A DNA stretch of 64,000 nt from Cenarchaeum sp. (GTDB lineage: Archaea; Thermoproteota; Nitrososphaeria; Nitrososphaerales; Nitrosopumilaceae), in contig OY843584.1 in NCBI GenBank assembly GCA_963692915.1, positions 1,088,001 to 1,152,000 of the forward strand, in the 5' to 3' direction. The notes under the pieces were generated by a model that worked only from the letters and a program-made list of their open reading frames with translations, had not been told where the DNA came from and did not search any database. Shown piece by piece: positions 1 to 38,790 of this stretch (positions are counted from its first letter, which is position 1; every line of letters begins with the position of its first letter). Both the position numbers and the translations under genes were made by a program.

Positions 1-3000
1 TCCTCTCCGGCCTCGGTGATGTCAGCAGACGCTATCCGGTACGTCGTGCTCTCTGTCGCCGCAGCCACCGTGAGCGTTATCGTGTTCAACGTGGCGTCAA
101 ATAACGGCAGCGTGGAAGTGCTCACGGTGAGCGTGTCTGTGAGTCCAGGCAGCGCGCTGACTGTGAACGTGCCTACCGGCGAGGCCGAGATCGCCTCGCT
201 CGTCGTGATCTCTATGGTCGTTGGGGACGTGAATTGTGCCCCTGTGAACGTTGGTGGCGCGTCGTCAGTCAGCGTGGACGGCGAGGTCGGAATCGTGTTA
301 TCTGTCGCGTCTCTAAACGGTAAGCTCGCCGGCGGCGTGTAGACGATCGAGGACGGCGTGAGCGCCGGTGATGACGTGAGGTCAGTGGCGCGCGCGGCAC
401 CAAGTGTGAGCACAAGGCCGTCGGCAGACGATATCGAGCCTATTGCCTGGCCTCCTACCGTCCAGTCCGGAGCATAGGGCACGCCGACCACGGTTTCGCT
501 AAAGTCCAGCGCTATGGTCGACGAGCTTGTGAGGCGCGCGCCAAAGATAAGCGGCGCGCTGTCAGTCGCCGCAGTGTCGCGCGTGGCGATATCCGAGGTG
601 CCCTCGGCGAAGAACCCGCCGGCCGGCCTCATGTCGGGCTTTGTGTACGCGACTTGCGGCGTGGCCGTCGTCGAGGAGAGCGCAGGGTGCGTGATGAGCA
701 GGCGCGTGGCAGTCGAGTCGTCCGGTATGGCAATCGGGGTGTCTGCCGTGGCCGCAGTCGCCGTCGGGGTGCCGTCGGCCTCAGCAGTCGCCACGCTCGA
801 CGGCGTGTGCTCCACGTTCATCGAGTCGGCCGTGTCGTTGTCCGTGACCGTCCAGTCGTCCACGTCGAGCGTGCCCCTGAGCGCGTCGCCGGTAAACGTG
901 ACGAGCGTAGTCGTGAGGCTCCTCGTGGCAGCCGTGAAGGGGACATACGTGTACGTCGCCTTCGTCATGGCGCCGTCGCCTATCACGTTGGCCGACGTGG
1001 CGAGGTCCTCGATGTCGTCGGCCAGGTTGATCGTGTACTCCGTGCCGGACGTGGCCGCCGAGACGGTGAGCGTGTACTCGTTGTCTGTGTGGTCCACGTC
1101 TGACACGGTCAGGCCGGTCACAGTCCACCCGTCTGATGCCTCAAAGCCAGTCTCGCCGGTCACGTTCTCGCTGAACTCCACGGTGATCGTAGTGGCGTCA
1201 TCGAACGTGGCGGTGAACGTCGGCGGCACGCCGTCAGTGGCCGCCGTGTCGCGCGTGTCGAGATCAGAGGTGCCCTCGGCGAGGAACCCGCCGGCCGGCT
1301 CGATGCCGGGCTTTGCGTACGCGACTTGCGGCGTGGCCGCCGTCGAGGAGAGCGGATCGTGCGTGATGAGGAGCTGCGTGACGTCTGGGGTTGACGGGAT
1401 CACCGGCGTCTGTTCTGCCGCGCCGCCCGACACGACCGGCGTCGCCACAGTCATCGTCGCGACGCCGCCGACCGCAGTCGCCACGCTCAATGTCGTCAGC
1501 GCCACGTTGTCCACCGCGTTGGCCGCGTCGTTCTCGGTGACCGTCCAGTCGTCCACGTCGAGCGTGCCCTCGAGCGCGGCGCCGGTAAACGTGACGAGCG
1601 TCGTCGTGAGGCTCGCAGTGGCGGCCGTGAAGGGGTCGGCTGCGACGGTCGCGGTGATGCCGTCGGCGGCGATCGCCGACGCGCCGTCCATGACAGGGTT
1701 GTTCTCGACAGGGTCAAGGTGGCTAGGTTTAGCATTCACCGTGTCGGCAAGGTAGCTGGAGGCGGGGCGGGTATAGGTGACTGTGGGCATGTCGTCCACG
1801 CCAAGGGTCGCCACGGTGAGCGTAAAGACCGTGTGTGTAGCGCCGCCCTGCGTAACGTTGGCCGCGTTCAGGCCGCTCGGCGGGGCGCCGTCTACGTCCC
1901 AGTTCCCCACGGCTCTAAAGGCGGCGTTAACAGCGGCGTCTCCCGTGTTGCGTAGCGTCTCGCTGAACGTGACGTCTATCATCGCCGTCGTCGACGTGCG
2001 CGCCGTGAACGTCGGCGGGGCCTTGTCGGTGACGGCCGTGGCAGATGTCGAGCCGGCGGCGGCCGCAAGGTAGAGCTCTGCCGAGTTCCGGAGCGTGTCA
2101 TCACCCGTCGACGGGCGCGTATAGGCCACGCTCGCCGCGGTGATCGCAGTCAGGTCGCCGTCACCGTCGGGGTCGGCCAGGCTGGTGGAGGGGCGCGCCG
2201 CCTCTAGCGTGAGGACGATCTCTGTGGCGTCAAAGGGCGAGGACGGCACCGCAGTCCTGACTGTCGAGCCGGCGACTGCCCACTCGGAGCCGGCAGTCAC
2301 GCCAAAGACGGCCTCGTTGAACGTGATCCTCACGGTGTCCGCCGAGGTCAGCTCGGCGCTGAACGTAGGCGCCGACGTGTCCTCGGCGTACGTGGCAGTC
2401 ACCGAGACGGCGGCGAGCGCGTTGTCCGAGGAGTCGTCTATGCCCGCGGGCAGCGCGACAGAGTACTCGCCGTCAGACGGCGAGGAGATCGTGACTGTCG
2501 CCCTGTCGGTGTTGTCGGCGTGGTCTGCGTTCAGCGCGCCGCCGGGCGTGACGGCCAGCGTGTCCGGCACTCCGTTGACCGGCTCGCTGAACAGGATGAC
2601 GATCGCGCTGCCCAAAAAGGCCGCCCTGGCAGTCGGCGGCGCGCCGTCAGCCACTGCCGTGGCCGTGGCCCTCGAGCCGGCGGTGGCGACAAGGTCGTTG
2701 CCGGCGCCGTCGGCGAGCGTGTTGGACGCAGTCGCCGAGTCGGCCGCAGGGCGCGCATAGACCACGTTTGCCGTCGTGATCTCCTCGAGCGGGCCTGCAC
2801 CGTCTGGGTCTGCCAGCGCCGTGCCCGCGCGCGAGGCCGACAGCGTGAGGACGATCTCGTCGACCGAGGAGGGCGAGGAGGGCGTGACTGAGCTGACTGT
2901 CGAGCCGGCGACGGTCCACTCGGCCGGCGCCGTCGTGCCGCTGACAGCCTCGGTAAACATGATCGTCACGGTGTCAGCAGACGTGAGCGTCGCGCTGAAC

Positions 3001-6000
3001 GTCGGCGCAGTAGTGTCTGGCATGTCCGCCGTGTACGCCACCGTCTCGGCCACGGCCACAAGCGCGTTGCCGGCTAGGTCGAGGACCGTGGCAGGTATGC
3101 TTACGGCATAGTCCCCGTCCGCGCTGGCGTTGACGTCGACTGTGACAGTCATGCCGCTCGCCGTCGCACCGTACGGCGTCGGGACTCCAGACGGCGGCGT
3201 GACCATTATGTCACCGGTGACCGTGACGTTCTCGCTGAACGTGAGGACGATGTCATTGCCGGCAAACGCCGAGCTCACAAACGTCGGCGCAACCTTGTCC
3301 ACGATTGGCACGGCATCAGCCGTACTGCCAGTCGCAAAGCCCGACTCGGCCACCGAGCCGGACGCCGTCGTTATCGTGCCGGACACCGTGCCGTCGGTGA
3401 CCGATATCGAGAGGGCCATCGTGCCCTCGGGCGCCGAGACGCCCACGGGCAGGTCGTACGTCCACGCATTCGCGTCCCCTGAGACGGCGTTCATGGCTAT
3501 GTTCGTGACCCCGGCCCCGCTGAGGCGCGGCCTCTCGGTGATCGCCTCGTTGAGCGTGAGCCGTATGCTCACGTCGTCGTTGAGCTTTGCGTAAAGCTCC
3601 GAGTCGCCGGACTTTTCCACGCCGGCGCTAGCAAGGCCGTCGTACACCGTAAAGGACATTGCAGTCGCCAGCGGCGGCGCGTCATAGGTCGCCGTGGCCG
3701 CCGCGCCGGCGTACGCGTTGCCGGCCCTGTCGGTGACAGTCGCCAGCGCGACAGAGTACGACCCGCCCTCGACGGGGAGCGCCGTGACGGTGAGGACAGT
3801 GTCCTGCGCGTCGGCGTCCCTCGGGCCGGCCACGCCTGGCGCCGGGGGCGTGAGCTGCAGCATGGCCGGAGAGACGACGTTCTCGCTGAACGTGATGACA
3901 AGCGAGCGAGCCGAGAAGGCCGCGGACACTAGCGTCGGCGCCGTGCGGTCAATGGTGGGCAGCTCCGTAGGCGCAGCGCCCACGTGGCCGGCCGTAGGCG
4001 TTATAGGCACCGACGCGTCGGCGGCGTCGGCCGCAGTTATCGTAAAGTCCAGCGCGCCCTCGGGCGTCGTGTCCGAGACGGCGAGGTCATAGTGCCACGT
4101 CGTGTCTACGCTGCCGCCCGTGTTCGTCATGGGCTTGTCCGTGAGCCCGCCGACGTCGATCCTCGGCGTGCCAGAGGCGTCCTCGTCGAGCGTGAGCAGG
4201 AGGCGGATCGTCTCGCCCTCTTTTGCGTGCAGCGCATAGTCGCCGCCCTTTAGCGTGTTGGTGCCCGGGGCCGACGTGTGGACCTCAAAGGAGATCGAGT
4301 CGGCCCTCGGCGGCGCGCCGAACTTGGCGCCTCCCGGCACGGCCGTGTTGGCGGTCAGGCCGTTCCCCCCCTCGTCGTCTATCCCGCTCAGGATCAGGGC
4401 GTACGTGCCCGTGGCCACACTGTCGTGCAGCGCGAAGCGCAGGCCGGTGTTCGGCCCGTGCTCGGTACCTGGCGGATCAAAGGGGTTGGGGGCCGTCGCC
4501 GTGGACTCTGGCGCCGTGCCCGTGGTGACCTCGGCGCCGTTGGCGGTGACCGACAGGGGGAGGGTGGTGGGCCTCACGACTGCCTCGCTAAAGATGACCT
4601 CGACGGCGTTGGCCGCCGTAAAGCTGCCCTCCACAGGGGCCGGCGGCGCGCCGTCGGCGGCGGTGACGGGGCTCATGCCAGTCGAGTCCACCGCGTTGCC
4701 GACCCTGTCGGCCAGGAGCGCCTGCCCCATGGCCAGATCGGACTCGGCCGGCCGCACGTACGAGACCTCCGGCGTCGAGGCCGTCGAGGGGAGATCGCCG
4801 TGGTGGAGGATCACCGTGAGCTCCCCGCGCGGCCCTGTCGTGTCTGCGCCCATTGGCGCCCCGCCGGGCAGGTTCACGCTCGTGACGGTGGGCGTGGAGC
4901 CCCCGTCCGAGACTGACCAGTCGGCCGCGCGCGCCGTGCCCACGATCGGCTCGGCGAAGGAGAGCGCCGTGCGCCCCGGGGCCTGCGTCCTGGCCGTGAA
5001 CGCCGGCGGCGTGGTGTCCTCCACGGCAGACGAGGTCCCGTCGGCCAGCGCGTTGCCGGCCGCGTCGACTAGCGAGCCGGCCCTGGCCGTCTCGCCGTCC
5101 GACGGGACGTCGAGCGTGAGCGTGATCGGCCTGTCCGCGTTGAAGATGTTATAGCTGGGGTCGAACCGTCCAACGCCCGCCGCGGGCACGACCGTGGCGG
5201 TGCCGGCGTCCAGGTCAACGGTGGCCGTCGCGGCGCCCAGCGTGGCGTCGGCGGTGTCCCCGAGGTTCCTCCCGCTGAACGTCCAGTCGGCCTCTGTCGG
5301 CAGCGTCTTGCCGGTGGCCATCGAGACGGTCTCGGAGAAGGTCACGGTGTGGACGGGGCTAGCGGTGCCGGTCAGCGGCCTCTCTACGGTGAACGTCGGC
5401 GGCGCGCCGTCAGTGGCCGCCGTGCCGCGCGTGGCGACCTCGGATGTGCCCTCGGCGAGGAACCCGCCAGTCGGCCTGTCGTCAGGCTTTGTGTACGCGA
5501 CGTTCGGCGTGGCCGCCGTCGAGGAGAGCGGATCGTGCGTGATGAGGAGCTGCGTGACGTCTGGGGTTGACGGGATCACCGGCGTCTGTTCTGACGCGCC
5601 GCCCTGCACGGCCGGCGTCGCCACAGTCGTCGTCGCGACGCCGCTGAGCGCAGTCGCCACGCTCAATGTCGTCAGCGCCACGTTGTCCGCAGAATCAGTC
5701 GCGTCGTTCTCGGTGACCGTCCAGTCGTCCACGTCGAGCGTGCCGGCGAGCGCGGCTCCGTTGAACGTGACGAGCGTAGTCGTGAGGCTCGCAGTGGCGG
5801 CCGTGAAGGGGTCTACGATGGTCGCGGCTATGCCGTCAGAGGCTATCGCCGACTCGCCGTCCATGACAGGGTTGTTCTCGGCAGGGTCTGTGCTGCTAGA
5901 GCCGGCCTTCACCGCGTCGGCGAGGTAGCTGGAGGCGGGGCGGGTATAGGTGACCGTGGGCATGTCGTCCACGCCAAGGGTCGCCACGGTGAGCGTAAAG

Positions 6001-30000: not shown

Positions 30001-33000
30001 GCGCCGGCCGTGACCGCATCGACCTCACCGGCGGCGATTCCAGTGGCCGGACCGGCCGGCTCGCCATCAAGGCTGCCGTCAACGGTCCACTCTGACGGCG
30101 CACTAGAGCCGGTCACAGCAGAGGTGAACGTGATGACGGTGAGAGTCGAGGAGCTCGTCACCGCAGATATCGTCGGCGTCGCCGGTATGCTAATCGTGCC
30201 GGCAGTCACGTTCGTCTCATCAGCGGTGACATCGACACTGGGTGCTGCGCCGTCGCGCGCGACAATGTCAAACTCGACCGTTCCTGACGCGTCATCAACT
30301 CCGACGGTGTGCGTGTGCGTCCAGACGGTCCGGTGGGCAGAGCCCGCGGCGGCGACCATATCGACTGTGGAGCCGAGTATCGTTATCATGGGTTCAGAGG
30401 CCGCCGAGGCCGGCTCGTTGAGGCTCGCCGTTATGACAATGTCCTCGCCCACATTGGCCACGCGCGCAGACTGGCCCATCTTTGCAGTCTTTGGCGTGCT
30501 ATCATTATCATCCTCATCGACAAAGACGCCGGCCGTGGCCGTTATGGTCAGCGCAGTGGTGTCAACAAAGTCCGCAACCCCGACTGCGCTAGTCAGGACG
30601 CGCAGCGCGCCGGCGTCTGACGAGAGGCCTGACGTGCGTGGCGTGCCGTCCGCGCCTAGATAGCGCACGACGGGCGTCGCGTCTGCCGGAAGGGCAGAGG
30701 CCGCCCCAAGGGTGATCGCAAGCGAGGCCCCGCCGGCTGCAAGCGTCGCGCCCGAGGGCACTATGTGGCTCGCCGTGTCACCAAGCCCGCCGGGGAACGT
30801 CGAGGGCGTGAGGTCGAGTATCCATTGGCCAGGCGTGGTCGTGCCTGACATCGAGTCAGAGAACGTCACGGTTATGGCCGTAGGCGAGGTGAGCGTCGCG
30901 CCAAACGTCGGTATCGCGCCGGTCATCACGTCATAGTCGCCGCCAAGCAGCAGAACATTGTCAGACGGGTCAGGATCAGAGGCGACGTACGTTCTAACCG
31001 TGGAGGGTATCGTGATCGTCTGCGAGGACGGCGTGCTCGCATCGGCCCGCAGCGCGACTGTGAGCGTCGAGCCGTCAGTAGCGGCCGCTATCACGTCGGC
31101 CCTGTACGACTCGCCGTCAGCAGTAACCACTGCAAGGTCGCCAAACGGCGGCGTAGTCGACGGCCTGTTTGGAAGTGTTGTCGGGTCTGGGGTGCTGCCC
31201 GCAAAGGCGAGGCTCACCTCAGACGCCCCGCGGCCGGCGACCTCGCCGACAGTCACCGTGACTGTCGGCGTGAGCGAGGCCGAGCCCGGACCGGCCACGC
31301 CGTTGGCGTCAGTTATGCCCGCAATGGTCACGGCGTGTGACACGTCGCGCGCGGCCGCACTGGGCAACGTAATGAGAATCGTGTCTGGTGCGACAAACTC
31401 GGCCGGAAGGTTCACAGAGGCTGCCGTGCCGATCGTGACGCCGAGTGCGGACGGAACCGTCTCGTCAGCGAGAGCCTCGCTGTACTCTAGGCGCAGCGTG
31501 TCCTGTGAGGCCAGCGTGAGTGTCACAGTCGGCGCAGTCGTGTCACGTACTACTGGTGCCGTAATGTCATCGGTGGTCCCGTTAGAGTGCGCGTCTGCAA
31601 TCGCGGGCATAGCGGTCGTGGAGGCAAGGGTGAGCGTGTACATGGTTCCCTCGGCGGCATTACTGATGCCTGGAGGCTGATAGTTTAGGATCAGTGTGTC
31701 CGCAGGAACGGGATCGCCCCTAAAGGTGCCGCCGGGAACCCCGGCGATTGAGAAAGTCGGAACCGGCGCGTTGACGCTTGAGATTCCGTGAGACAGGCTT
31801 CCGGTATTCACGTTGATAGGCTCGCTAAAGAGGATGCTCAGAACAACGCCAGCAGAGTCAAACGTCGCGCGAACGAGCGTCGGATCCAGGCCGTCAGCGG
31901 CAGTGACGGGCGAGTCGCCAGTAACTTCGAGGTCGTTGTCGTTCACGTCAGCCAGGCTCGTTGCGGCATCAGTTATCTCATACGCCACAGACGGCCTCGC
32001 GGCAGTAGAGTCAAGCTCGGCATGGACCAAAAAGAGCGTCCGCGCGTTCGTTAAGGTCTGCGTCGCGGCACCATCAGAGTCCACGGCAGTCGCGACGCCC
32101 GTGACGGCCACGCCGGCGACTGTCCAGTCAGCCACGCGGGCAGTCCCCGTGACAAGCTCGCTGAACGTGATCTCGGTCCGGTCCAGCCTCGCCGTCTCGG
32201 CAGTAAATGTCGGCATCATGGTATCAATCACCACTGCAGATGACGTGTCGGCCACGGCGTTGTCGGCCATATCGACGATAGAGTTGGCCCTGGCAGACTC
32301 GCCATCACTAGGCACGTCGAGCGTGAGCGTGATCGCCTTGGACTGGTCAAAGGCCGGATAACCGCTAGTCGCGTCATTGCTGGCCACGACGGCAAGCGTG
32401 CCGGCCGTGGCAAACGCCGTGTTGACCACCGACGTAGCCGAGACCGTAATGTCCGCATCAGCGGCGTTCTTGCCGGTGAACTTCCAGTCAGCTATCGTCG
32501 GCAGCGTCTTGCCGGTGGCCATCGAGACGGGCTCAGAGAAGGTCACCGTGACGGTGTGTACGCCGCCCACTATGGAGATCGAGGCGCCAAACGTGGGCGA
32601 GACGCCATCAGAGGCCACGACAGAGTCTTGCCCCACGGCCAGGTCATCAGCGTCGGCCAGCGCGCCAGTCTCGCTGCCGGAGGCCACAGTATACTTGACA
32701 GTCGGCACAGAGGCCGTCGAGGAGAGTGCTGCGTGCGTGATGGTAAAGGACAAGGCGCGAGCTGACTCGGGTATGGTATAGTCGGTGCCGACGATTGCCG
32801 CATTTGAATCATCAACGCGCAGCACGGTTACGACCCTAGACCTGTCGCCCTCGCCCGCGCTGTCAGTCACCGCCCACTCGCCGACTGCAAGGCGGCCGTC
32901 AACTGTTACATCGGCACCAGAGGGGCTCTTTAGCGTCACGACTGTAGTCGTCAGGCTCGCAGTCGCAGCCTCAAAGGTCACTGTCGGAACGCGCTCCACG

Positions 33001-34787
33001 TCACCATCGGGAACGGCCCCCTCGTTGTCGCGAAGCGCGCCGCCTGTGACGCCCTTTAGGTCCGGAAAGCCCGAGTATGCGACATTTACCCTGTCCGGAG
33101 TCGTAGACGAGCGAGTCGCGTGCGTGATCGTGATCGAGGAGACAGGCGCCGAGGGCAATATCGTGAGCGTGGCGGCCGCAGTCCCCCCTGCGCTGAGCGT
33201 CGAGATGACACGCTCTGTCTCGGTCTCGCCGACCGTGTCAGTCACCTCCCAGTCGCCGATCGCAGTCGTGCCAGCTACTGGCTGCGTGAACGTGACTACT
33301 GTCGTAGTCGGGTCGATGCTAGAGACGCCAGAGACAAAGGGCGGCTGCGTGTTTGTGGCAAGCGCGCTAGTCTGCGAGGCGACATCATCGCCGTCAGCGA
33401 CTGACTCGATGCCGGCCCCGCCAGAGGAGGGCACATAGCGCACGATGGGCGTCGCGGCAAGCGAAAAGGCGTTGGCATCAGGGACCGTGAGCACAAGGGA
33501 GACGCTGCCTGATATCGGGCCGGCCGACGCGGCGGCAAATGACTCTGTGTCTGTCGGCGTGGCTATGCGCGTGGCGGGCGTAGAGTCGACGAGCCACTCG
33601 GCGGCCGCAGGCGCGCTCAGCGTGCCGGTGAGGCGTATATGCTCGCCAAAGGTCACGCGTATCTCGGTGGGCGAGCGAATGGTGGCCTCAAAGCGCGGCG
33701 AGCCAAACGTCGCAGTCACGGTCCCGCCGTCAAATGACGGCGAGCCGTCGGCATAGTCTATCGAGTCAGGCAGCACGAGCGAATGGCCGGCCGGCGTCGT
33801 GACCGAGGCGCTCAGCGCCAGGTCGACAACGGTGGAGCTCGCCGCGGTGATAGCGGCAACAGGCGCGTCATACGCCACAGTGGAGCCGACAGGCGTAACC
33901 GATATGGTCGCAGGCAGTGTAGAGACGGAGACTGCCTCGGCAAAGGTGACGCGCAACAGGAGCGCGTCGACGAACTCGGCGGTGGCGACCTGCGAGGTCG
34001 CAGTAGCGCTCAGTGCGCTGGCGGCAGTCACGCCGTTGTGGTTTGCGGCTGCGCTCGGCAGCGTCACCGTGTACGTCGTGGATGGCAGAACGTCAGGAAT
34101 GCGGATTGTGAGCTTTGTGTTGCCGTCAAACTCGGCATCGAGGTGCACAAGCGTGCCTCCGGCCGGCGTGACAGATATTTGCAGGCCGGCAGCCATCGCA
34201 TCCGTGTCAAGCGTGGGGCCGCGCATCCGTTGCGTAAAGGTGAGCTCGATAGTGTCATGTGTCAAAAATAGCGCAGTCGGCGCAGTGGGAGCAGCAGTAT
34301 AGTATGTCGCCGTGACAGTCGTGGCATCTGTCGTGTTTGGCGTCGCGACGAGATCAGAGATCGACGGAACCGAGATCATCACCGACGCGCCGGCGGCGAG
34401 TGCCGGAGTGATGTTGAATGTGACCTGTTCGGGGTTTGTCGACGTGCTGTGGGCCTGACCCGAGGCCGTAAATGACGAAGTGCTCACGCTAAATGGGCCG
34501 GGCGGCGCGATGGCCTCGCTAAAGACGATCGTCACGGGGCTCACCGGTGTAGTGTCTGTGGTCGGCGCGCCGACAGTGACTGTCGAGACGACCGGTCCGG
34601 CGCCGTCTGCGGCAGTCGCCATCGCGCCGGCGGCGAGCGCATTGTCGGCCCGATCAAGGATCGGGTTTGCCGGCAGCGTCGCCACCTGGGCCGCCGCGTC
34701 GCTCCCGCCGAGTCCGGCAAGGAGCGTTATGGCAGCTAGCATAGCAATGCCCGTAGAGGACAACCTACTGTGGCTCAATTGGGCCAT
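1..34787 (-). CDS. Giant secreted surface/adhesin-like protein (>=11,595 aa, 3' end outside window) made of tandem Ig-like/SwmB-like repeats
   Basis: ATG at 34787 reads MAQLSHSRLSSTGIAMLAAITLLAGLGGSDAAAQVATLP; the same frame still reads TYRIASADITEAGE at position 3. The ORF track lists no stop-terminated ORF in this minus frame over 34.8 kb, which implies no in-frame stop. Recurrent motifs: DGxxPTFxA, TVTFSE, WxV, TPxVxYxxP, DxAGNAL. The start could be TTG at 34778 given TATA spacing. Confidence 0.93.
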   Translation of the reverse strand, partial: MAQLSHSRLSSTGIAMLAAITLLAGLGGSDAAAQVATLPANPILDRADNALAAGAMATAADGAGPVVSTVTVGAPTTDTTPVSPVTIVFSEAIAPPGPFSVSTSSFTASGQAHSTSTNPEQVTFNITPALAAGASVMISVPSISDLVATPNTTDATTVTATYYTAAPTAPTALFLTHDTIELTFTQRMRGPTLDTDAMAAGLQISVTPAGGTLVHLDAEFDGNTKLTIRIPDVLPSTTYTVTLPSAAANHNGVTAASALSATATSQVATAEFVDALLLRVTFAEAVSVSTLPATISVTPVGSTVAYDAPVAAITAASSTVVDLALSASVTTPAGHSLVLPDSIDYADGSPSFDGGTVTATFGSPRFEATIRSPTEIRVTFGEHIRLTGTLSAPAAAEWLVDSTPATRIATPTDTESFAAASAGPISGSVSLVLTVPDANAFSLAATPIVRYVPSSGGAGIESVADGDDVASQTSALATNTQPPFVSGVSSIDPTTTVVTFTQPVAGTTAIGDWEVTDTVGETETERVISTLSAGGTAAATLTILPSAPVSSITITHATRSSTTPDRVNVAYSGFPDLKGVTGGALRDNEGAVPDGDVERVPTVTFEAATASLTTTVVTLKSPSGADVTVDGRLAVGEWAVTDSAGEGDRSRVVTVLRVDDSNAAIVGTDYTIPESARALSFTITHAALSSTASVPTVKYTVASGSETGALADADDLAVGQDSVVASDGVSPTFGASISIVGGVHTVTVTFSEPVSMATGKTLPTIADWKFTGKNAADADITVSATSVVNTAFATAGTLAVVASNDATSGYPAFDQSKAITLTLDVPSDGESARANSIVDMADNAVADTSSAVVIDTMMPTFTAETARLDRTEITFSELVTGTARVADWTVAGVAVTGVATAVDSDGAATQTLTNARTLFLVHAELDSTAARPSVAYEITDAATSLADVNDNDLEVTGDSPVTAADGLDPTLVRATFDSAGVVLSILFSEPINVNTGSLSHGISSVNAPVPTFSIAGVPGGTFRGDPVPADTLILNYQPPGISNAAEGTMYTLTLASTTAMPAIADAHSNGTTDDITAPVVRDTTAPTVTLTLASQDTLRLEYSEALADETVPSALGVTIGTAASVNLPAEFVAPDTILITLPSAAARDVSHAVTIAGITDANGVAGPGSASLTPTVTVTVGEVAGRGASEVSLAFAGSTPDPTTLPNRPSTTPPFGDLAVVTADGESYRADVIAAATDGSTLTVALRADASTPSSQTITIPSTVRTYVASDPDPSDNVLLLGGDYDVMTGAIPTFGATLTSPTAITVTFSDSMSGTTTPGQWILDLTPSTFPGGLGDTASHIVPSGATLAAGGASLAITLGAASALPADATPVVRYLGADGTPRTSGLSSDAGALRVLTSAVGVADFVDTTALTITATAGVFVDEDDNDSTPKTAKMGQSARVANVGEDIVITASLNEPASAASEPMITILGSTVDMVAAAGSAHRTVWTHTHTVGVDDASGTVEFDIVARDGAAPSVDVTADETNVTAGTISIPATPTISAVTSSSTLTVITFTSAVTGSSAPSEWTVDGSLDGEPAGPATGIAAGEVDAVTAGAAAVSITSDKITLLHEPISTASLPTITYAATAGGLSPATGRTVSAATATATDGAPPDYIAVRTGTGADLEHTITFTEGAELVATKTLPTHEDWQFVGLNNLDATIRVPALSAGYAIDLVTADTVTLSPRATGNHGYDDFKADTPISIEFDAVDVNRELSIADAQGNAVSDGTLAVISSAPTISSVRLTSPTSVTVSFSDTLDGKTARGEWSVDGDEPDSVTAGLQTTTGPGSITITAAVRSITLTLADKDEQDDDAMPVVMYTRPTGAGANSLANAADLPLLSTPAGGIVAADGIAPTIESALFVDADTITVTFSEDVTNVTDIEGDDGWSVTRGVTSLDLESASRTADSEYTIELEDAAQAGLTYTINAANAIKDRATPMANNIGASASTTATYNAPPTIMGATLDAPTTVTVTFSGTLDGETDANEWRVDNVAPASVDAGGSPVDAGSTLTIGTATMTLTLTLASAQAVDATPVVTYTRPTAGQDPNSLDSTADVALESTIAPHITALDRIAPTILSATLDSSTQVTATMSETVTGTITGSEWNISTGITFDSGTVSGTTVTLTRDATNRLPSTAVATGAVLAHTGTGSIVDASSNALAPTATSATFTDNAAPELADTGSLFMLRAVPNPGSAPTYSSNPASAGHVAWVLIKPSETLYVGGSAIPIGSGNPASQTYTPSAASADITFFPGTPSSATALGAGQSGETTRIYNYSHAVTASSPEGNITFMLTVRDAVGNESMFTHEDLTEDSSIPRTRSGDTAGVLIDDGGYRVRVEVRDPEVLSSAFSAPNTFVITFREHLKDGTVPSTTSSYPMTSGSSAVGLTGTADYAEQDVTSTVTLTLASNSAPNVSHTVELPDGIQDDSDNMIAAAATASATRMVSDTRAPTASSLVFTVYDGTPDSGTLKTGESALHASDGDTIRLVLKLDEDAAGTPMIVVNGRTAAEGTAMDDNDDDLATTWRYDLPVTSSSGEAAFTFTITAADAGGNSEPITQAAGLSTGVTVSVPTIDLTAPTAEADFTAIRKVAITLDEALANTALDIAGYTFGVTVPDTSSGGTTKAVSLDSSNPPAYDATALTITLTLADDATLNIVHTITLPTLLADLAGNAFASPATVTATYAPDSTAPTFSASLTSADTVTIEFDENVSGTTAPGEWTVAGSTVSAVTPSSPSSVDEIVLTLDAARPSTGLEDPDGTGSLTAFTAANVVYTRPAADSATASNTLADGVGNDLVATASGTATATAVTDSVAPTARAVFFGDAIAILFSEPVNNMPSSLQVTTPASTTGGVTVAHSDGEIRVAVPISPPTAGEYSVALSTDITDVSGNELATASVMATYAVDTTAPTFGATLTSADTVTITFSDPVVGATAFGEWAVAGSTVRTVTPSSPFGDTEIVLTLDAARPSTGLEDPDGTDSLTAITTANVVYTRPSTGTSTIQNSAMLYLVDSAGGTATAATVTDGAPPMFTVERPLTDAVTNVHTVTFSEPVLHATGKTLPTEDDWTFSGRAPGASTDTSVTADSVVYDMPSQLATAMLDVRRFDVYSQFSLDTIVLTLDAQADGRVDSIVDTAGNALADGTFSAVEDTTPPTFTPLTRSLEHTRIHFTEPLVGTVRATDWSISDGSAPLAITGVTLDTGTPLPAITIGSGGAASMLLTHASLQSTGSTPEVSYVQPTLTDQEMAMGQALLADKAGNLVGSTLDSPVVAADGVGPVPVEGSFTASNTVEVIFSEAVIRPTDKPLSVTLNGIEATTGTAPESTEMAPNPFDPPGAVHGPDTGLRFTLADHVVDGTYALVLSDIRDAAMNIITANTAVPGGAEYDSLPMATVISFAVYGDTDTDGSGTADTLNLLTIKSGASALHAMADNTIRLALTLDKDVATAPSVTVPGMGRTPTATPMGNAGDADASTWHHDIIVGATTVETSSTAPFTFSITVGNNPVPITQDTMLAGGITFSVPTIDRTAPTLTTTAFSGTSIVLTFSETVVSPTTLTVTPPSGASDAMARNTMPVGAVVTVLDATYAPGAYSVALPSTLTDLAGNAYADAAATGTYDAPPRATEISFEVYDDTDTDGSGTGDTLELSTLKSGASALQAAAGDTIRLLLTLGEDASGTPEIDVGGLTDQSMVNTGGSDASTWHYDLAVSATTPETSSVAPFDFTIDVEDAAGIDGQITAEDGHTGDITVELPTVDRTAPTLDAAMPAFFRGTSIVITFNEVIVTPDTFTVNVAPPLTSGVQQQNRGAIAEGAVLTVDAMANLAGSWAVQLTSVITDLAGNALVAVVSETTYTPDTTAPTFSATLTSADTVTIRFDEDVRGTTAPEEWIVAGSAVSTVEPSSTSSPSSVREITLTLATERATTDLSDPDGASGLTALSATSVVYTRPATGTTTASNTITDLSGNDLAAAGSRAMSTAVTDEANPRLDRAVFATDGNGMTLTFTETLATLPSGLTFALSSVVTGAPIPTVGVVTASGSTITLPLASSVSSADDGTLYALTIGGGTIEDVNGNAFEDSVSATYDTTPPTFRAAFSGDRTIVLTFNELLAQRTVVAGNFGVTVPNSTQGGSPVSVALASTGAVTYDADALTVTLLLAGDATRGVAHTITPTSLLTNAAYLPYGGAGVAVTLPLTDTIGPAFTASLTSASTVTIDFGEPVNGVTAPDEWRVAGLTVSTVTPSAPSSVEEIVLTLSASRVGTALADPDGTGPLVAITPANVVYTRPATVPGTVSNTITDASGNDIAAAGEMATATAVSDKAPPTFTAKTLELDATTITFSEPVDGTIRAVDWSFTEGQDGTKMTANGIDSATATLLTASSTGSVNINHPTLASSASTPDFAYDASTALDAGQVRLADASGNTMLSTGDTPVRAADGIEPKPQVGRFTSAFIAEILFDDAVVLQGDEGLEISLSSGTVAQTGTASASFDPEDEGYGPDTGLRFPLAGGVATGSAFILRVTGTTDSLGNDALTAVRVPGTVEYVPLPAIDAVLTSASTMRIDFSRSVSGTTAPGEWKVGGSTVRTVVPTMLETARSVLLTFEQPRPSTGLTDPDGSSGDLTAINRSTVSYTRPSEGANVLSNAGGTPLVGKGEALMARSVTDRAPPVVDRAEFILGGASVRMTFSESLAALTPGGVTFVLTGSAGATALTAGTVTVAGNTVTFTVAPGASSSPDGTMYTLGIMGEGSIIDPSSNAYVENPASLPAVTYDTTAPTFTAKITGARTIVLTFDDALAPETVVAGNFGVTVPDGIDADALPDAVALASTDPVAYDANALTVTLTLAEDASSATHTVTPTSRLANAAYLPYADAGVAATRAQPVIVAATLDTPTSVTVTFSVALDGSTARTAWTVADQRPDSVTAGLLTTAGDAAITITSATDTITLTLASAQAADATPDVAYTDAAGGLLDPNDVALRPTGANPVEAADGIAPSIESATFTEPNMITVTFTEPVTEVTAGWSLTDTVGSLDVDTADHSGSTYTLELDGNAVDGRSYTVNAPGTIADVATVPNTIVAGETETATYNAPPTITLAELVTPTSVTVEFSDDLDGSTARMAWTVAGQQPDSVTAGLLTTVGDAAITITSATDTITLTLASAQAADATPDVAYTDAAGGLLDPDDVALRPTGANPVEAADKVRPSIESAEFTAADTIEVTFTEDVTEVTTGWTADGGLTVSNAALVVGDATTYTLTVSGATDGTEYTISAPGTIMDEAATPNTIVAGDEADATYTAPDMTAPVASSIAFEVYDGTPAPATLKTGDSALSASNGDTIRLILTLNENAAGTPTIEVPGRTAAGTAMGDNGDALATTWHHDLLVMSSWTEAAYTFTIAAADAAGNTSPIMQAAGLDTGVTVTVPTIDLTAPTATAEFTAARTLVITAGEALLNTQAQVEGYTFGVTVPDADSDGSPDAVPLATANPSASPPVKPVAYDATARTITLTLAADAAEVEHTVTLPAGLADLAGNAFATGATASATYAAPATFEAATRSLTTTLVTFHGGTLAGTLDVTDWTVTDNDTGSADVVLTPSRVATASAGGVATATAATAGSPIAIPDASTATRLLITHGALSSTGATPRVAYADGDLKEGGTGGSDVDDGGTEATDRVRPVIGVVHITGPTSMLVQFSEPMAGSTRLNSWIIRDEESSSSTFPSVQGLSLPDKPAALTLSIPPSSPSSEIVIVHALLSSTQIGYYEGKRERDHGATLQYTDTALTDVAGNALRVGAERLVVPNERMLDRAGPEAYTVNLDVSRARLPAADPSVGYGTLLVKAGDTVTVRPEIPSYTPNGPDDPDCRLPEPQCADPPYAIASAKVKYFDDDTSRPLSYDAANDNWTHTLTVTTGIPEGQLVPVFTTVDIPVGNEATFTRGADCTRDANTRAHACVNDSGNNDINEARFAALWPIVDHNPPTVVSATMTSTTTTTVEFNEIVRFNGGTAAERAGHWAIKNAGAQAATGSVSISGTVMTMSHAPLPTGATPTLEYALGTSAAGRVIDRIDRELAAITPQSPVMVADSVPPTLVSVLQQLPTRTIHATFSEALDASTVSGTTVYLEAGDTTSTGRTTPVAGVTVAPVTGSPEIVALTLPLAAADAQYTLRATTDIGDASPASNSPAADLVGTVTVDTMVPLATAISYTVLEADSMGALSARAAPYSNYARAGDTIRLTVTLNQDAVEPPTILLDGKTDDPGTTADDANTVTMTRVAAGDETRWTVDYLVLAGAGEPADGTFEFMMSVSDEAMPTPNMTVVTGSAGHVPSYAAPTRPITDRVAPTLVSAKSTTTSDVMLTFNEALTGTVSRTDLSLSGATSGNPAKIITSSGAEADSYTLSGLPLSFTLRHDELGHTGGGVLVAYTASATRLFDVAGNELATFSATPAADTVRPTVRSASFEIGGGAILATFSEAMGTPAASWVGIDAALGTLGDVTLDETRTRLRAEVGTAAMANTIYTITITTSAADDAAVPNTLATMAVYLLDGPPVSLGITSMDVRVLREASPNDDVENLVARTGAHAQHAMAGDTIEISVVLDTAAQAGDDHSPRASFLGGVAAGMDEVTSGSPAPAARTAWTARHTVAAADAEGPAGFEVSAVRTRSVTNSISGDAEDVMTTGIATQEAITGAAGNAIIDTTAPAVAGARFAGASAILVEFGEPITAAPATVSVSSPDGDDPDTDADVADAAVTHVPPSRSLSLAVTQASDGDTYSAMLPATILDRAGNALVAVSRAVTFSDGPYVTGARTLDATRTLVTFSETVGGTAVSLEWTLTEGSTRVAVDGIAAGEAASVATATTTQITGSPTSITLLHDALSSTAATPTVEFVRSGVASMTDAAGADPLLGTSAPLPVAVDGAPPTFTAMFDGATTIIVEFSEDVTEVTAGWSASGGLSVSDVDFDDDDTYTLTVSGATDGTEYTISAPGTIKDKATPTANTIGADAEADATYTEPGPFTAATASLTTTLVAFDGGALAGTLDVTDWTVTDNDTGSADAELIISSVATAAGGVATATVATPETSAGADDAVTPSIPSSPAATQLLITHAPLSSTAATPRVAYADGDLKEGGTGGSDVDDGGTEAADGVPPVPAVGRFTASNIVEILFGEAVVQPDGERLTVSSVAGTVIGTAVTTGSVDNAGDLFDPADEGYGPGTGLRFTLAAPVAEGTYALTLSEIEDAADNSLDDNTRVGGDTYVAAYDVPPRAETISFEVHTSAPGADTLKAGDYPLHARMGETVRLLLTLDEDVSDTPTIDVAGTTGASMDDRGDGDASTWRYDLLVSATTTEGELDFEITAANADGVSVPITPTAGHVGAAPAPLPTIDRTAPTLVSAAFSGASLVITFSENVVSPATLQLTPPAPGMAGPRAADASGAAVTVTALPAEGGTYSVALAGVTDRAGNAYAGAAATAPYDAPPLATAMSFTVFNGPASFGHTKSGASELHARLTDTVRILLTLNEAITARPVLTGTGVSNVQMNAVQGDTTMWTYDLSVGAATPEGTLALSISVTDGTVTGTITTASGMVAESGFATGSMADDLPVVDKTQPTLQDAEFVDNDIVLTFDEDVTIGGGGLLVTPPSGGFVEYVATASGMTVTVEVGASVEGGYIIYVTSAIQDLAGNVFAPVQRTVEYTAPVADPFTAATRSLTTTLVTFDGGALAGTLDVTDWTVTDNDTADSMDAELVISSVATVAASGSVTATPETAPDAGDAATPTIPSSPEATQLLITHNALSSTAATPRVDYADGDLKEGGASGTSVADGGADATDGAPPTFTVHEATEAEEALVGVTDDDGRALYAVYAARMSEAMDAADFAATPAGADGQWAVTLGTATAAVDRVAHAAAADPVPDRVIIRSSSTFTPLFPIPEGSPTLTYTASGALALADAAGVAMASPTRAAVTPAPVVPPFAAETRSATTTIVTFDGGDLGGALAVADWSIMESGGVGTRLVALVVETVTTDPAESVRSNTVGTPHGAPVASVTIGADPAVTQILITHTQISTAATPTVLYRGTGLTEGGTAVTLGDAVAADGAPPTFEAELASASTVRIIFSERVDGTTAQGEWAVAGSTVNSVVPASPSRATEVVLTLASARAGTDLGGLDASGVTYTRPTVGTNTIQDDADNHLATNAGDTVTAEHVTDKIAPTATVTATVRLEGDGADHATVTTAGIGDDVRVNVVASEPLVTAVGDIALFGTSTDADSVDTAAGNAYSYVRTIADSDANGPLAFTLTISDSEGNETTLTQADVTGTNVVVDSDAPTFSAELTSASTVKITFTENVEGTTAFGEWEVAGSAPASLSLTEDGAAVTGDLQTTTATDTLYITLAAARASTDLGGLAASGVTYAPRGTGALADTADNAFVTVNSMVEATAVTDKATPTFEAEFDGATTIIVEFSENVTEETGFSSASGDWSVTGLAVSGVDHTDDEYELTVSAATSGTEYTINLADDIADLAVPANAIGDGAMTTATYTAAPAPMATVVAYTVLDGSTANARPDPYASHAREDDTIRLSITLDGEATSVSVLFVGKTDAADAVTMTQVTGTNEWRATYVVESAGSIDGAFTFDATVTAASGETRPVDETTLSATTPPTIDRDAPTATVTASVRLEDATADSSTVTLAGIDDDIRVNVAAGETLVTAVSDIALFGTSTAADSVDTAAGNMYSYVRTIAASDADGALAFSLTIRDTAGNEATYTQADLEGTNVTVDSDAPTLSSAATATTGMLTVTLSEAVTGAGVATEWSAEDGATEAMISGVDVSGSTVTLTYATIADTSFAPTVEYTGTDIVDAARNAIALDSATSAATVAATDALRPEIMSATFTAADKISVTFSEAVTSDLTTGPEGWSVVVGSASLTVSNVGFASPTYTLTVSDVVPGTEYTINAADMIDDIVTPTANRVLSTESDTATYTAPDTSEPVASSILFEVHDGAPGADTLKSGDSALRASDGDTIRLILTLNEDAAGTPTIEVDGRTAAGTAMDNNGDTLATTWRHDLLVTSSWTEAAYAFTIMAADAANNSEPITQDAGLGAGVTVTVPTIDLTAPTATAGFTAARTLVITAGEALLNTQAQVEGYTFGVTVPDTDSDGVAEDVLLATADPAARPPVKPVDYDATARTITLTLAADADAVEHTVTLPAGLADLAGNAFATGATASATYTAPADTTPPTFSASLTSATTVTITFTEDVDGTTAPAEWTVAGSTVSAVTPSSPSSVDEIVLTLSASRAGTALADPDGDGPLEEITTASVVYARPAADSATASNTLADGAGNDLAAAGMTATATAVADGAPPTARAAFLGSAIVILFSEPVNGVPDTLALTPPAGSTVTAGPTGTDHTDNTDRATVAISSPAAGGYSVALPAGIDDASDNALAAAPVTATYAEDTSAPTFSAELTSAQTVRITFNEAVFGVTAGSEWAVAGSTVRTAVPSSPFDATEIVLTLDPARPYTSLDDPDGAGDLAEITAASVAYTRPSTGDDTLRNSAELRLAAAAGSTSATAVTDKAPPTFTARTLTTTMMAVTFSETMRNTGSADAGATFRAVGHWAVDGAPPSALTAENVTRDGATYTVFTLTVATLGVDDMPTVTYTRPASSYLADAVKAGSSSTDPAENNPVMDGESAIASDGIAATIVDPFTAATASLTTTLVTFNGAALAGTLDVDDWTVTENDATDSADNVALTTLSVATALSGVATTTVATPAVQGGASEQTPVIPSTPDVTQLLITHDPLSSTAATPNVAYTKPDDRPTGGFLAEGTSEVATRGTAATDGAPPTFTVERPLTGTASPVHTVTFSETVSMATGKTLPTEADWTFSGRNLGDTADATLGAATATVDLDAGTATVVPAAGVGRFDPSYNIFNADRPITLTLDVPSDGETARAGSLVDAAGNALADGTSSAVEDTTPPAFTARTQAPGRTALSFAEPIVGTARAADWSVSDGGSTPTVTSVNLPGGAPMGADTTGPRGELTVILHHGDLPSTASTPEVSYVRPAESDLAMGQALLADRVGNAVDSTGMSPVTAADGAPPAPVEGSFTAANAVEVIFSEAVVRPTTLPLSVTANGAEVTTGTAPESTATAPNPFDPPGTEHGPNTGLRFALHDSVATGTYALILSGIDDEGGNGLTANTAVPGGAKFGAPPRADSISFEVHTSAPGTNTLKGGDYALHAKEGETIRLLLTLDEDASGTPRIDVGGLTDKPMTNTGGSVDTTWHYDLAVSDTTPEGALDFTITAADAADASVPITPTAGHVGAAPTELPTIDRTAPTLVSAAFSARSLVITFSENVVSPAMLQLTPPAPGVAGPRDADAQDTVLTVTALPVEGGSYSVALATVTDRAGNAYAGAAATATYDAPPLATAMSFTVYDGLASAGVEKSGDSELYAKLNDDVSIRLTLNEAITERPRLSGAGVTNIAMNAVSGDANAWTYDLPVGVSAPEGTMALSISVTDGTVSGTITTASGSVAESGFATGSTADAVPIVDKVAPTFVSSAFAGNDIVLTFSENVTVTGDIMVTPPSGVPTPYGATASGMTVTVDVNASADGDYAVSIPATVLDLAGNALVAVAETVAYTADMPDTTAPTFSATLTSADTVTIMFTEAVSGTTAPAEWTVAGSTVSSVTPSSPSSVDEIVLTLSASRAGTALADPDGAGPLEEITTANVVYARPAADSATASNTLADGAGNDLVATAGSRATATAVADGAPPTARAAFLGSAIVILFSEPVNGVPDTLAVTPGGALNADHADNTDRATVTISSPSDGEYSVALPAGIDDSSDNALAAVSVTATYAEDTSAPTFSAELTSADTVRITFNEAVFGVTAGSEWAVAGSTVRTAVPSSPFDATEIVLTLEAARPSTSLADPDGDGDLTAITAASVAYTRPSTGDDTLRNSAELYLAAAAGSTSATAVTDKAPPTFTARTSTTAMIDVTFSETLRNTGDAAVNAAFRAVGNWDVDGAPPSGLNAANVTQGGATHTVFTLTVATLGVDDMPTVTYTRPASSYLADTVNAKPSHLDPVENNPVMDGASAIAADGITATVAADPFTAATASLTTTLVTFTGAALEGTLDVDDWTVTENDAANAVDNVALTTLSVATAVGGVATMTVATPVVSGGAAEQTPVIPSTPDVTQLLITHDPLSSTAATPQVAYAKPGIEPAGGFLAEGTSDLDTRDTAATDGVPPTFTATFDDATTITVEFSENVTGETGFEASDGWTVTGLTVSDVDHTDNEYTLTVSAATSGTEYTINLADDIEDLATSANVIGDGAMTKATYTYVPFTAATRSLTTTLVTFTGDALRGTLDVDDWTVTDNDTADSMNVEHTPSSVATAEADGTPTATAATADTPIAIPDDSTATRLLITHPALSSTTATPQVAYTKPDMRPAGGFFAEGTSDIATRDTAATDSAPLIFGARLTSSSTIALDFSETVVGVPYAPDWTVGGQAIGSISSADGLVLTLGAARATDLTSSPALTPSSIVYTPPASLPFRDATDNTIPTSPSTLTDDAPPTFTGAQFTSPTTIEITTSEAISASPVGTFTVSALPGLTDTLTVSTSTLPLFDATLNTITLTVAAATESTTYRIASADITEAGE
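1215..7200. repeat. ~1.8-kb internal duplication in the giant gene (about 1215-3010 vs 5390-7200)
   Basis: Long near-identical stretches, e.g. gatcgtgcgtgatgaggagctgcgtgacgtctggggttgacgggatcaccggcgtc at 1355 and 5531 (offset 4176, in frame). Confidence 0.9.
3030..13050. repeat. ~1.3-kb internal duplication (about 3030-4320 vs 11760-13050)
   Basis: Shared segments such as gtcgcaaagcccgactcggccacc and gagacgacgttctcgctgaacgtgatgacaagcgag in both copies. Confidence 0.85.
8530..10240. repeat. ~350-bp near-identical internal repeat (about 8530-8890 vs 9890-10240)
   Basis: gtgcgcacgtacgagtac...ttgcccgccgcagtgtccaccgagtcggcg...gacgtcccaaagagcgcaatgtcgc present in both. Confidence 0.85.
19126..20090. 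repeat. Near-identical tandem module, period 618 bp
   Basis: gcggcctcgaccgggtttgcgcccgtcgggcgcagcgcgacgtcg... near 19175 and 19793; the minus shadow ORFs starting at 19404 and 20022 are near-identical. Confidence 0.9.
34689..34787 (-). other. Sec-type signal peptide of the giant protein
   Basis: Basic n-region (H,R), hydrophobic IAMLAAITLLAGL, and AAA-Q cleavage motif after residue 33. Confidence 0.75.
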
Positions 34788-34803
34788 TCGGGCGCGCGTT
34801 AGG

Positions 34804-34811
34804 TTATAAGC
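34804..34811 (-). promoter_or_regulatory. TATA box of the giant gene
   Basis: CTTATAA on the minus strand just upstream of the start, in an otherwise GC-rich context. Confidence 0.6.
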
Positions 34812-34820
34812 ATAGTGGCA

Positions 34821-34991
34821 GAAAATAGCGCGATCAGGGCATGATCGCGCCCCCCCCCCCCCCCCCCCAATTTTGGGCGGTGAATGTAGGCGGGCAAGAC
34901 GCCAAACTGTCAAGTCGGCCCAGGGCTGGGCATCGGGCCGGCGCAGGCCGACAGGTCGGCAGGAGTCCCGTGTCGCACTTTTGCGCAGGGC
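34821..34991. repeat. ~165-bp element, copy 1: palindrome plus C19 tract
   Basis: gcgcgatca-gggca-tgatcgcgc perfect inverted repeat (34828-34850), C19 (34850-34868), then aattttggg...aggagtcccgtgtcgcactttt; matches 38628-38790. Confidence 0.92.
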
Positions 34992-36077: not shown

Positions 36078-36288
36078 GCGGCAAGGATCAGTGCGCGCGC
36101 ATCGCCCTGAGGAGATGGCATGGTGTGGGACTATTGTATAAACGGCCTTGGCCGATACCCGCACTCCTGAACAGTCTCCCCTAGGCACGCTCTTTGACCA
36201 GCATGTGACAAAAGGCTGTCAGTCATTTATGGCCAGGCACGGGATCGCGCACCCAAACCCCCAAATCGCCATCGGATCACATGGCGCA

Positions 36289-38627: not shown

Positions 38628-38790
38628 GAAAATGGCGTGATCAGGCCATGATCGCGCCCCCCCCCCCCCCCCAATTTTGGGGGGGTGAATGCAGAGCCGC
38701 AAGACGCCAAACTGCCAAAGTCGGCCCAGGGCTGGGCATCGGGCCGGCGCAGGCCGGCAGAGGAGTCCCGTGTCGCACTTTGCGCAGGGC
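38628..38790. repeat. ~165-bp element, copy 2: palindrome plus C16 tract
   Basis: gcgtgatca-ggcca-tgatcgcgc, C16 (38657-38672), aatttt G7; direct repeat of 34821-34991. Confidence 0.92.

Follow-up and report, generated by a model that had tools for sequence, protein, structure and literature searches.

In bacteria, SiiE, LapA, the MpIBP-type RTX adhesins and Ebh form rods of tens to hundreds of immunoglobulin (Ig)-like modules that hold a tip off the cell, and the giant surface protein SwmB is needed for non-flagellar swimming in marine Synechococcus. Among archaea, halomucin of Haloquadratum walsbyi is described, in the accessible parts of two papers (PMC4378361, PMC1544339), as a secreted protein of 9,159 aa that is thought to coat the cell and was called the largest archaeal protein in 2006, and the surface-layer (S-layer) protein of Nitrosopumilus maritimus, NmSLP, is described in the accessible part of another (PMC11153153) as a lattice-forming protein whose 1,734 aa make up ten domains. 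Archaeal proteins longer than 10,000 aa are rare, the few found being mostly from Asgard archaea (West-Roberts et al. 2023, bioRxiv 10.1101/2023.11.21.568195), and few archaeal proteins above 5,000 aa are in UniProt (PMC11573180); the portions of these two sources accessible to us carry these statements and do not mention Cenarchaeum. Here we describe a gene of a sponge-type Cenarchaeum sp. (assembly GCA_963692915.1, contig OY843584.1) that encodes 25,609 aa and may specify the longest archaeal protein yet described. The initial annotation had pointed out that host-associated thaumarchaeotes encode very large proteins, and this gene is such a case. We think it probable that the product is an exported giant Ig-module fibre on the cell surface, held there by a C-terminal module.

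The window, that is the whole 64,000-nt stretch of DNA that was analysed, is G000:C1:1088001-1152000, on a contig of 1,644,826 bp without N. Its minus strand carries a frame without a stop at 3..34913, which counts 11,637 codons from a TTG and whose 3' end is open at the window edge in an open reading frame (ORF) listing that includes open ends. An ATG at window position 34787 opens the sequence MAQLSHSRLSSTGIAMLAAITLLAGLGGSDAAAQ and is followed by 11,595 codons up to the window edge. Outside the window, a TAG at G000:C1:1045958 closes the frame, which counts 25,651 codons if read from the TTG and encodes 25,609 aa if read from the ATG.

3..34787, minus strand: part of the giant gene in the window (codons 1-11,595), a stop-free frame.
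G000:C1:1045958-1122787, minus strand: the whole giant gene, 76,830 nt, 25,609 aa plus stop.

The single hidden ORF of at least 11,595 codons that the initial annotation had proposed is thus real and makes up less than half of the whole gene, and all 25,651 codons are free of the in-frame stops that might have been met on translation. The mass, put there at more than 1.1 MDa, is about 2.60 MDa, over twice that lower bound, and the stop, which had been sought in an adjacent contig, lies in the same contig, 42 kb past the window edge. The remaining five frames of the 76.8-kb gene hold 213-1,556 stops each, their longest open stretch being 786 codons, which excludes chance as the origin of the giant open frame. 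The gene occupies 4.7% of the 1.64-Mb genome. Its G+C content is 65.9% against a comparison value of 59.4%; a horizontal origin was considered for this excess and rejected, since the Ala/Thr/Gly/Val/Asp-rich composition explains it and a syntenic copy stands in the sister species, whose complete chromosome (G001) was assembled independently.

We take the ATG at 34787 as the start because a signal-peptide-like sequence (MAQLSHSRLSSTGIAMLAAITLLAGLGGSDAAAQ) follows it directly, because this sequence is kept in the G001 ortholog, and because A/T-rich promoter-like boxes lie between the upstream TTG and the ATG. The TTG at 34913 was rejected as a start, since it would bury the signal peptide 42 residues inside the protein and read through a poly-G tract and the TATA-like boxes.

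34686..34787, minus strand: Sec-type signal peptide of 34 aa, with a basic n-region (SHSR), a hydrophobic core (IAMLAAITLLAGLGG) and an Ala-rich end (AAAQ).

The signal peptide was judged by inspection, with no predictor, and agrees with the one named at 34787 in the initial annotation; the N-termini of the paralogs described below are of the same build and end in A-Q. Over the whole giant protein no 19-residue window has a Kyte-Doolittle mean above 1.9, and no second hydrophobic segment was found.

Nearly all of the chain consists of Ig-like units of two classes, about 213 in total, covering 24,384 of the 25,609 aa.

237..34583, minus strand: window part of the Ig-like array, about 97 units, from Pfam and our own hidden Markov model (HMM); class 1 is Big_5-like, 90-160 aa.
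8517..9227, minus strand: example of a tandem class-2 pair (AGIDDxIRV..D.AGN..APT), from the repeat HMM.
16908..17270, minus strand: unique insert of 121 aa with 4 of the protein's 12 Cys and no family match.

Class 1, collected with an iterated HMM built on the protein itself, comprises 178 units of 90-160 aa at a median spacing of 118 aa, with the motif ..PT..A....TFSE...W.V...TLT...YT...D..GN. Class 2, located in the gaps left by the class-1 HMM, comprises 38 units of about 105 aa, 16 of them in the window part, with the motif A..GDTIRL.LTL.E...P.I..G....M...W.YDL..F.IT..D..GN...P.ID.TAPT. The class-2 units stand single or paired among class-1 runs, and the order of units shows recurring multi-unit blocks, which are traces of segmental duplication. 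Of the alternation of two repeat classes that had been read from the window, the classes themselves stand; a strict alternation does not, as class 2 is scattered and the units recur in blocks.

Pfam Big_5 (PF13205) exceeded its cut-off in all seven chunks of the protein (49-127 bits against 23.6), whereas SWM_repeat (PF13753) exceeded its 27-bit gathering score in two of them (30.1 and 58.2 bits) and reached 16.6 bits in one more; CopC matches in the chunk scans were weaker than those of Big_5. When single class-1 units were scanned at E <= 0.01 (150 of the 178, evenly thinned, two of the 178 having spanned locus borders), 52 matched Big_5, 13 SWM_repeat, 11 CopC and 3 Big_12, and the SWM_repeat matches were always fewer and weaker than those of Big_5. 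The resemblance to the SWM repeats of SwmB that had been proposed for the first class, now looked at with profile scans, thus exists in part (13 of 150 units, two of seven chunks) and is weak beside Big_5 (52 of 150, seven of seven). These same matches are what speaks for a SwmB-like motility protein serving non-flagellar swimming, as in marine Synechococcus, an explanation to which we give almost no chance: Big_5 is the better family on the same units, the organism is an uncultured archaeal sponge symbiont, and no other part of a motility system was seen nearby, where none was sought.

None of the 38 class-2 units matched Big_5, and no Pfam family recurred among them. Their AlphaFold2 model is a seven-strand beta sandwich with a predicted local distance difference test score (pLDDT) of 87.1 and a predicted template modelling score of 0.77, whose best neighbours in the PDB are weak and all Ig-like. 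A 2,000-aa repeat chunk had no hit at E <= 0.01 among PDB chain sequences, and neither the N-terminal 500 aa nor the C-terminal 800 aa matched a Pfam or NCBIfam family, save for one sub-threshold Big_5 match. No longer homologs were found among proteins of 3,501-5,000 aa, and protein atlas scores to clusters, 0.78-0.80, are within the chance range. A type-1-secreted RTX adhesin was also considered and rejected: no RTX or other Ca-repeat family is among the Pfam hits of the seven chunks or the last 800 aa, and an N-terminal signal peptide is present.

The giant gene has a syntenic ortholog in G001, with homologous flanks on both sides, and the two independently assembled genes measure 76.8 and 76.6 kb. 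Self-comparison of the gene gave 423 internal DNA matches, nearly all 65-85% identical; because even the best internal repeat reaches no more than 89% identity, over 1.9 kb, and exact repeats extend to 146 nt at most, collapse or chimera, and with it mis-assembly, is unlikely. The ends of the two orthologs are collinear (nt 1-13,363 at 88% and nt 65,616-76,830 at 93% identity), whereas in the middle repeat blocks have been gained and lost, yet the total lengths hardly differ. Over 40,021 aligned nt 8.2% of the sites differ, 52 of 57 indel events are multiples of 3, and no in-frame stop is observed against 115 +/- 12 expected under random substitution at that divergence. This pattern shows that selection keeps the reading frame open. 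The ratio of non-synonymous to synonymous substitution rates (dN/dS) ranges over 0.58-0.82 across six repeat blocks and drops to 0.34 for the last 1,011 aa; the repeats are fast-evolving, with turnover, and the C-terminal part is more constrained. In window 1-20000 each of the 30 bins is covered by public contigs, which come from three samples of two studies and whose listed indel variants are 3-nt or compensated +1/-1 pairs, bar one dissimilar record. Many contig joints on this part have sides of <40 nt at 90% likeness and were taken as cross-matches between repeats or paralogs.

At its end, where a membrane anchor had been anticipated, the protein has none and carries instead a conserved C-terminal module. 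This module, the last 578 aa (residues 25032-25609), is without a Pfam, NCBIfam or PDB relative. In its AlphaFold2 model, made with 77 homologs (pLDDT 87.3), a beta-rich part (1-224) is followed by an Ig-like sandwich (232-425, pLDDT 94-98) and two long helices (498-517 and 540-565). The core of roughly 185 aa, the Ig-like sandwich, is marked by G-x-G-C-x-D-C-x-PPTLG ... W-Q-N-Y/F-x-N-H-G, and 36 alignment columns are at least 90% conserved among the 77 sequences. For the last 800 aa no NCBIfam family was found at E <= 1, and at the same threshold the module profile hit no PDB chain sequence. Structure searches of the PDB by Foldseek and VIA-align brought up generic Ig-like sandwiches only, with low template modelling scores, the best (Z 8.6) being the CD28 V-set on module residues 238-404; these structure searches barely covered residues 1-224 and the helical tail. 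Signals of the archaeosortase type, such as PGF-CTERM and PEF/PEFG-CTERM, combine a C-terminal motif with a transmembrane helix behind it and a basic tail. No such sorting signal was seen here: the last 800 aa match no NCBIfam family, there is no C-terminal transmembrane helix, and the chain ends in the acidic ...PEDDDEGTDG.

The module is not private to the giant protein. It matched 653 cluster representatives at E <= 1e-3 and 156 at E <= 1e-30, and 15 of the 41 genomes searched, including all four others of the genus and none of the 16 sampled outside the family. In other Nitrosopumilaceae the core lies toward the C-terminus of secreted proteins of 400-700 aa, nearly all named 'hypothetical' in their sources; among the homologs whose Pfam content was examined, the domains ahead of it are beta-propellers, Laminin_G_3, fn3, Ig arrays and solute-binding domains. 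A stop follows within about 20 residues of the module in 11 of the 13 Cenarchaeum-type loci checked, the other two ending at a contig end and running into an in-frame repeat. Because it is shared by secreted proteins with unrelated payloads and is placed last, the module would most simply be an address or docking device.

Within the genus, the full module is present in four copies in G000, in frames of 25,697, 3,494, 3,061 and 2,961 aa, and gave 12 matches in G001, in frames of up to 16,125 aa. The paralogs of the giant gene, namely a tandem 9-kb pair at G000:C1:638222-656917 and G001 frames of 14,652, 16,125 and 11,156 aa, share the module at 50-78% identity and resemble the giant gene in having signal peptides of the same build, Big_5-type units and, in several cases, a poly-G tract 59-81 nt before the ATG. 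The giant gene is 1.6 to 8 times longer than these paralogs. The three G001 frames end near 608138, 385478 and 83883 with the same module, and no G000 frame other than the giant gene exceeds 5,232 aa. These close species thus have sharply different sets of giant genes, one having three further giants and the other none above that size.

The window holds three poly-G tracts.

34850..34868, minus strand: poly-G tract (G19, coding strand) that stops 62 nt short of the ATG; a candidate slippage-prone promoter element.
34829..34849, minus strand: inverted repeat CGCGATCA-N5-TGATCGCG with 8-nt arms, directly after the poly-G tract.
34804..34828, minus strand: A/T-rich promoter candidates CTATTTTC (34821-34828) and TTATAA (34804-34809), TATA-like by eye only.
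38657..38672, minus strand: duplicate of the promoter module of the giant gene, where G16 stands between the same flanks; it precedes the 370-aa ORF at 37413-38525 by 131 nt.
36573..36591, minus strand: third poly-G tract of the window, G19, upstream of the 378-aa ORF at 35052-36188.

The inverted repeat after G19 is possibly a regulator-binding site; both G001 and the duplicated promoter (window 38657-38672) have near-identical copies of it. In the 9-kb pair TTATATA lies about 24-31 nt before the ATG. The 378-aa and 370-aa ORFs, both on the minus strand and each below its own poly-G tract, are paralogous to each other, share a conserved C-terminal stretch and gave no family match.

In the whole G000 genome there are 15 G/C runs of at least 10 nt and 12 of at least 12 nt. 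Four of the latter 12 sit 59-81 nt before the ATG of giant genes with signal peptides, each with poly-G on the coding strand: the 25,609-aa gene, the two genes of the 9-kb pair and the 5,232-aa frame, whose flanking sequences are unrelated. Outside the window, G tracts stand at G000:C1:419733, 647452 and 656965, among other places. Tracts at the same places in G000 and G001 measure 19 vs 18 (giant gene, at the same spacing), 16 vs 13 (duplicated promoter) and, for the pair, 19 and 17 in G000 against 18 and 16 in G001, differences that are between species only and that homopolymer assembly errors could mimic. A further tract of G001 stands ahead of its 16,125-aa frame. No tract was found at the 3,494-aa and 2,835-aa genes of G000 or, in G001, at the starts estimated for the 14,652- and 11,156-aa frames. 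The promoter pattern of the pair occurs in two of the five genus genomes (G000 and G001), the other three being fragmentary metagenome-assembled genomes that are 72-91% complete, so that the result bears on presence only; a promoter-pattern scan of Joint Genome Institute (JGI) metagenome contigs gave no match. Long G tracts also occur away from giant genes in G000:C1 (G26 at 280081-280106, G21 at 1521639-1521659, G14 at 21144-21157 and G15 at 1631617-1631631). Judged by sequence, a long homopolymer in the promoter or 5' end of a surface gene is one mark of simple-sequence contingency loci, and the giant gene has one.

The composition of the giant protein is extreme: its isoelectric point is 4.05, with 3,137 Asp and Glu against 1,002 Lys and Arg, Thr makes up 15.8% and Ala 14.5%, and there are only 12 Cys in total. 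The net charge of about -2,100 is spread over the whole length at -6.5 to -10.5 per 100 aa, the last block being slightly more negative. Such a uniformly negative chain might be an ammonium-harvesting polyanion, an acidic brush extending the cation-concentrating role of the Nitrosopumilus S-layer, as the N. maritimus S-layer protein is, in the accessible part of its description, an Ig-like array whose negative charge enriches ammonium (PMC11153153). We consider this improbable. Neither the repeats, compared as one 2,000-aa chunk, nor the C-terminal module match a solved chain in sequence, so they do not match the N. maritimus S-layer protein if it was included; apart from the last block there is no charge gradient like that of NmSLP; the fast repeat turnover and the poly-G tract fit an interaction surface better; and an acidic isoelectric point is general among thaumarchaeal surface proteins, according to the accessible part of PMC6790972.

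The same charge, together with the extreme size and the signal peptide, recalls halomucin, which in the accessible text of PMC4378361 has 9,159 aa, is secreted and surrounds the cells, and the giant protein has neither a transmembrane segment nor a known archaeal sorting signal. The chain could therefore be a released matrix or coat, that is, a secreted acidic chain forming a hydrated polyanionic shell against sponge phagocytes, viruses and chemical stress, in which the C-terminal module would serve folding, export or self-association. This seems unlikely to us, because the protein is an ordered array of folded Ig modules and not a mucin-like low-complexity sequence, and because a module that so many secreted proteins share, though otherwise unrelated, points to a common address and not a matrix function.

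We therefore favour an exported fibre of Ig modules that stays on the cell surface. The Sec pathway would export the giant chain, which fits the neighbourhood, where no dedicated secretion gene was seen; no glycosylation or sortase gene was seen there either. At the envelope the chain would be held by its C-terminal module, probably at the S-layer or in the space beneath; we assign the docking to this module because it is the only part common to many smaller secreted Nitrosopumilaceae proteins with mutually unrelated N-terminal domains. The rod of Ig modules would project the N-terminus outward, over about 0.8 um if each module spans ~4 nm. Together with its paralogs the giant protein may form a fibrillar coat that attaches the symbiont to the sponge matrix or to other cells and presents a variable surface to the host and to viruses, and the G19 tract just upstream of the promoter may switch or drift expression by slippage. 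We infer the adhesin or surface-fibre role from the architecture, the rapid evolution and the lifestyle; extracellular fibres and adhesins are likewise made of Ig-like repeats. The expanded surface-protein sets of sponge thaumarchaea, C. symbiosum included, have been suggested to serve adhesion or recognition (Moeller et al. 2019, PMC6790972, accessible in part). Taken together, the genus-wide giant fibres, the Nitrosopumilales-wide docking module and the slippage-prone poly-G promoters might be an archaeal counterpart of bacterial contingency loci that varies the surface shown to the animal host and viruses, an idea that we put forward as possible but rather doubtful.

Several points weigh against the surface fibre. 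Binding, anchoring and fibre formation are all things that we infer, and since no relative of the module has been solved or annotated, we can only guess at an anchoring role from where it sits and how it is distributed. In the G001 ortholog one missing G, a 1-nt deletion, separates frames of 24,633 and 1,061 aa. Either the assembly is wrong here or the gene is truly truncated, with loss of the C-terminal module; in the second case the species would manage without the last 1,061 aa, the supposed anchor among them. The missing G lies at G001:C1:1250631-1250895, in GGGACCGGCGGC, which is not a long homopolymer, and corresponds to about nt 73,729 of the G000 gene. Weak constraint would also give a dN/dS of 0.6-0.8. 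N-x-S/T glycosylation sequons are strongly depleted, 61 against 162 +/- 11 in 200 shuffles, despite 16% Thr and an export signal. Finally, no run on record as RNA is among the listed runs that carry the sequence of the giant gene, and the public contigs, of only 200-1,100 nt, are evidence of presence, the long-range order of the repeats being beyond their reach.

The frameshift, the lack of an RNA-type run among the listed carriers and the long-range order left unchecked by reads would also be expected of a gene that does not work, either an assembly artefact of the repeat region or an unexpressed, decaying relic. We regard this as very improbable. It is opposed by the limited identity of the internal repeats (at most 89%, longest exact 146 nt), by two independent assemblies of 76.6 and 76.8 kb, by the absence of stops where about 115 are expected, by the 52 of 57 indels that stay in frame and by the public-contig variants, which, bar the one dissimilar record, are 3-nt indels or compensated +1/-1 pairs.

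The surroundings of the gene show further features. Directly after its stop, G000:C1:1042357-1046074 carries a 3.45-kb cassette of two N6/N4 DNA methylase genes and a 412-aa ORF without an assigned function. The cassette is flanked by a 135-nt direct repeat (97% identical) that includes the last ~115 nt and the stop of the giant gene. As the sister species lacks it, the cassette has the look of a restriction-modification element that was inserted recently. Beyond it lie a gene for a coiled-coil protein and then one for topoisomerase VI subunit A. On the other side, 8 kb upstream of the giant gene (window 43013-44167, minus strand), a tetratricopeptide repeat protein of 384 aa is encoded, of a kind often counted among the 'eukaryotic-like proteins' of sponge symbionts, and housekeeping genes also lie on this side. 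Elsewhere on the contig, two tandem open frames on the plus strand (G000:C1:5434-10509 and 11638-16713), of exactly 1,692 aa each, recall in size and pairing the two S-layer paralogs of N. maritimus.

We found no prior description of the giant gene or of the module in the literature on giant genes and sponge thaumarchaeotes; the 2006 genome paper of C. symbiosum may mention similar ORFs. The symbiont would spend 4.7% of a 1.64-Mb genome on one exported chain that is kept open through heavy repeat turnover, and this DNA cost and the open frame mark the gene as probably central to life inside the sponge. The C-terminal module, which tags hundreds of thaumarchaeal secreted proteins, is a candidate for envelope attachment in globally important ammonia oxidisers, and the layout with promoter-proximal poly-G might prove the first tractable example of archaeal phase variation.

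Compared with known systems, the giant protein resembles in design the bacterial giant adhesins SiiE, LapA, the MpIBP-type proteins and Ebh: those are Ig rods, as this protein probably is, and both are fast-evolving, repeat-variable and very acidic. It differs from them in that it carries a Sec signal and not a type-1 secretion signal and, unlike the RTX adhesins, has no RTX or Ca-repeat family among its Pfam hits; any anchoring would fall to a new C-terminal module, and the archaeal envelope lacks an outer membrane. With SwmB of Synechococcus WH8102 it has in common that it is a giant repetitive protein, there on the cell surface and here probably so, and that some units reach the SWM_repeat cut-off, although such matches are few and weaker than those of Big_5. 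Its promoter resembles the C-stretch of Bordetella fim genes in that a long G/C run lies beside a surface-gene promoter, here with a conserved place and a length that differs between relatives; the promoter here is archaeal, however, and the tract lies upstream of a TATA-like box and not between two promoter elements. Halomucin, as far as its accessible descriptions go, is likewise a secreted giant archaeal protein and presumed cell coat, but it is 2.8 times shorter and mucin-like instead of an Ig array, a distinction drawn from description and not from sequence. NmSLP, from the same organism family, is also an acidic Ig-like array, with its C-terminus toward the membrane in the accessible part of PMC11153153, whereas no solved chain was hit in sequence by the 2,000-aa repeat chunk or the C-terminal module, the parts of the giant protein that were compared. 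Giant Ig-repeat surface proteins are thus already known, and what is new here is the domain of life, the size, a class-2 unit and a C-terminal module that had no annotation, and the promoter tract.

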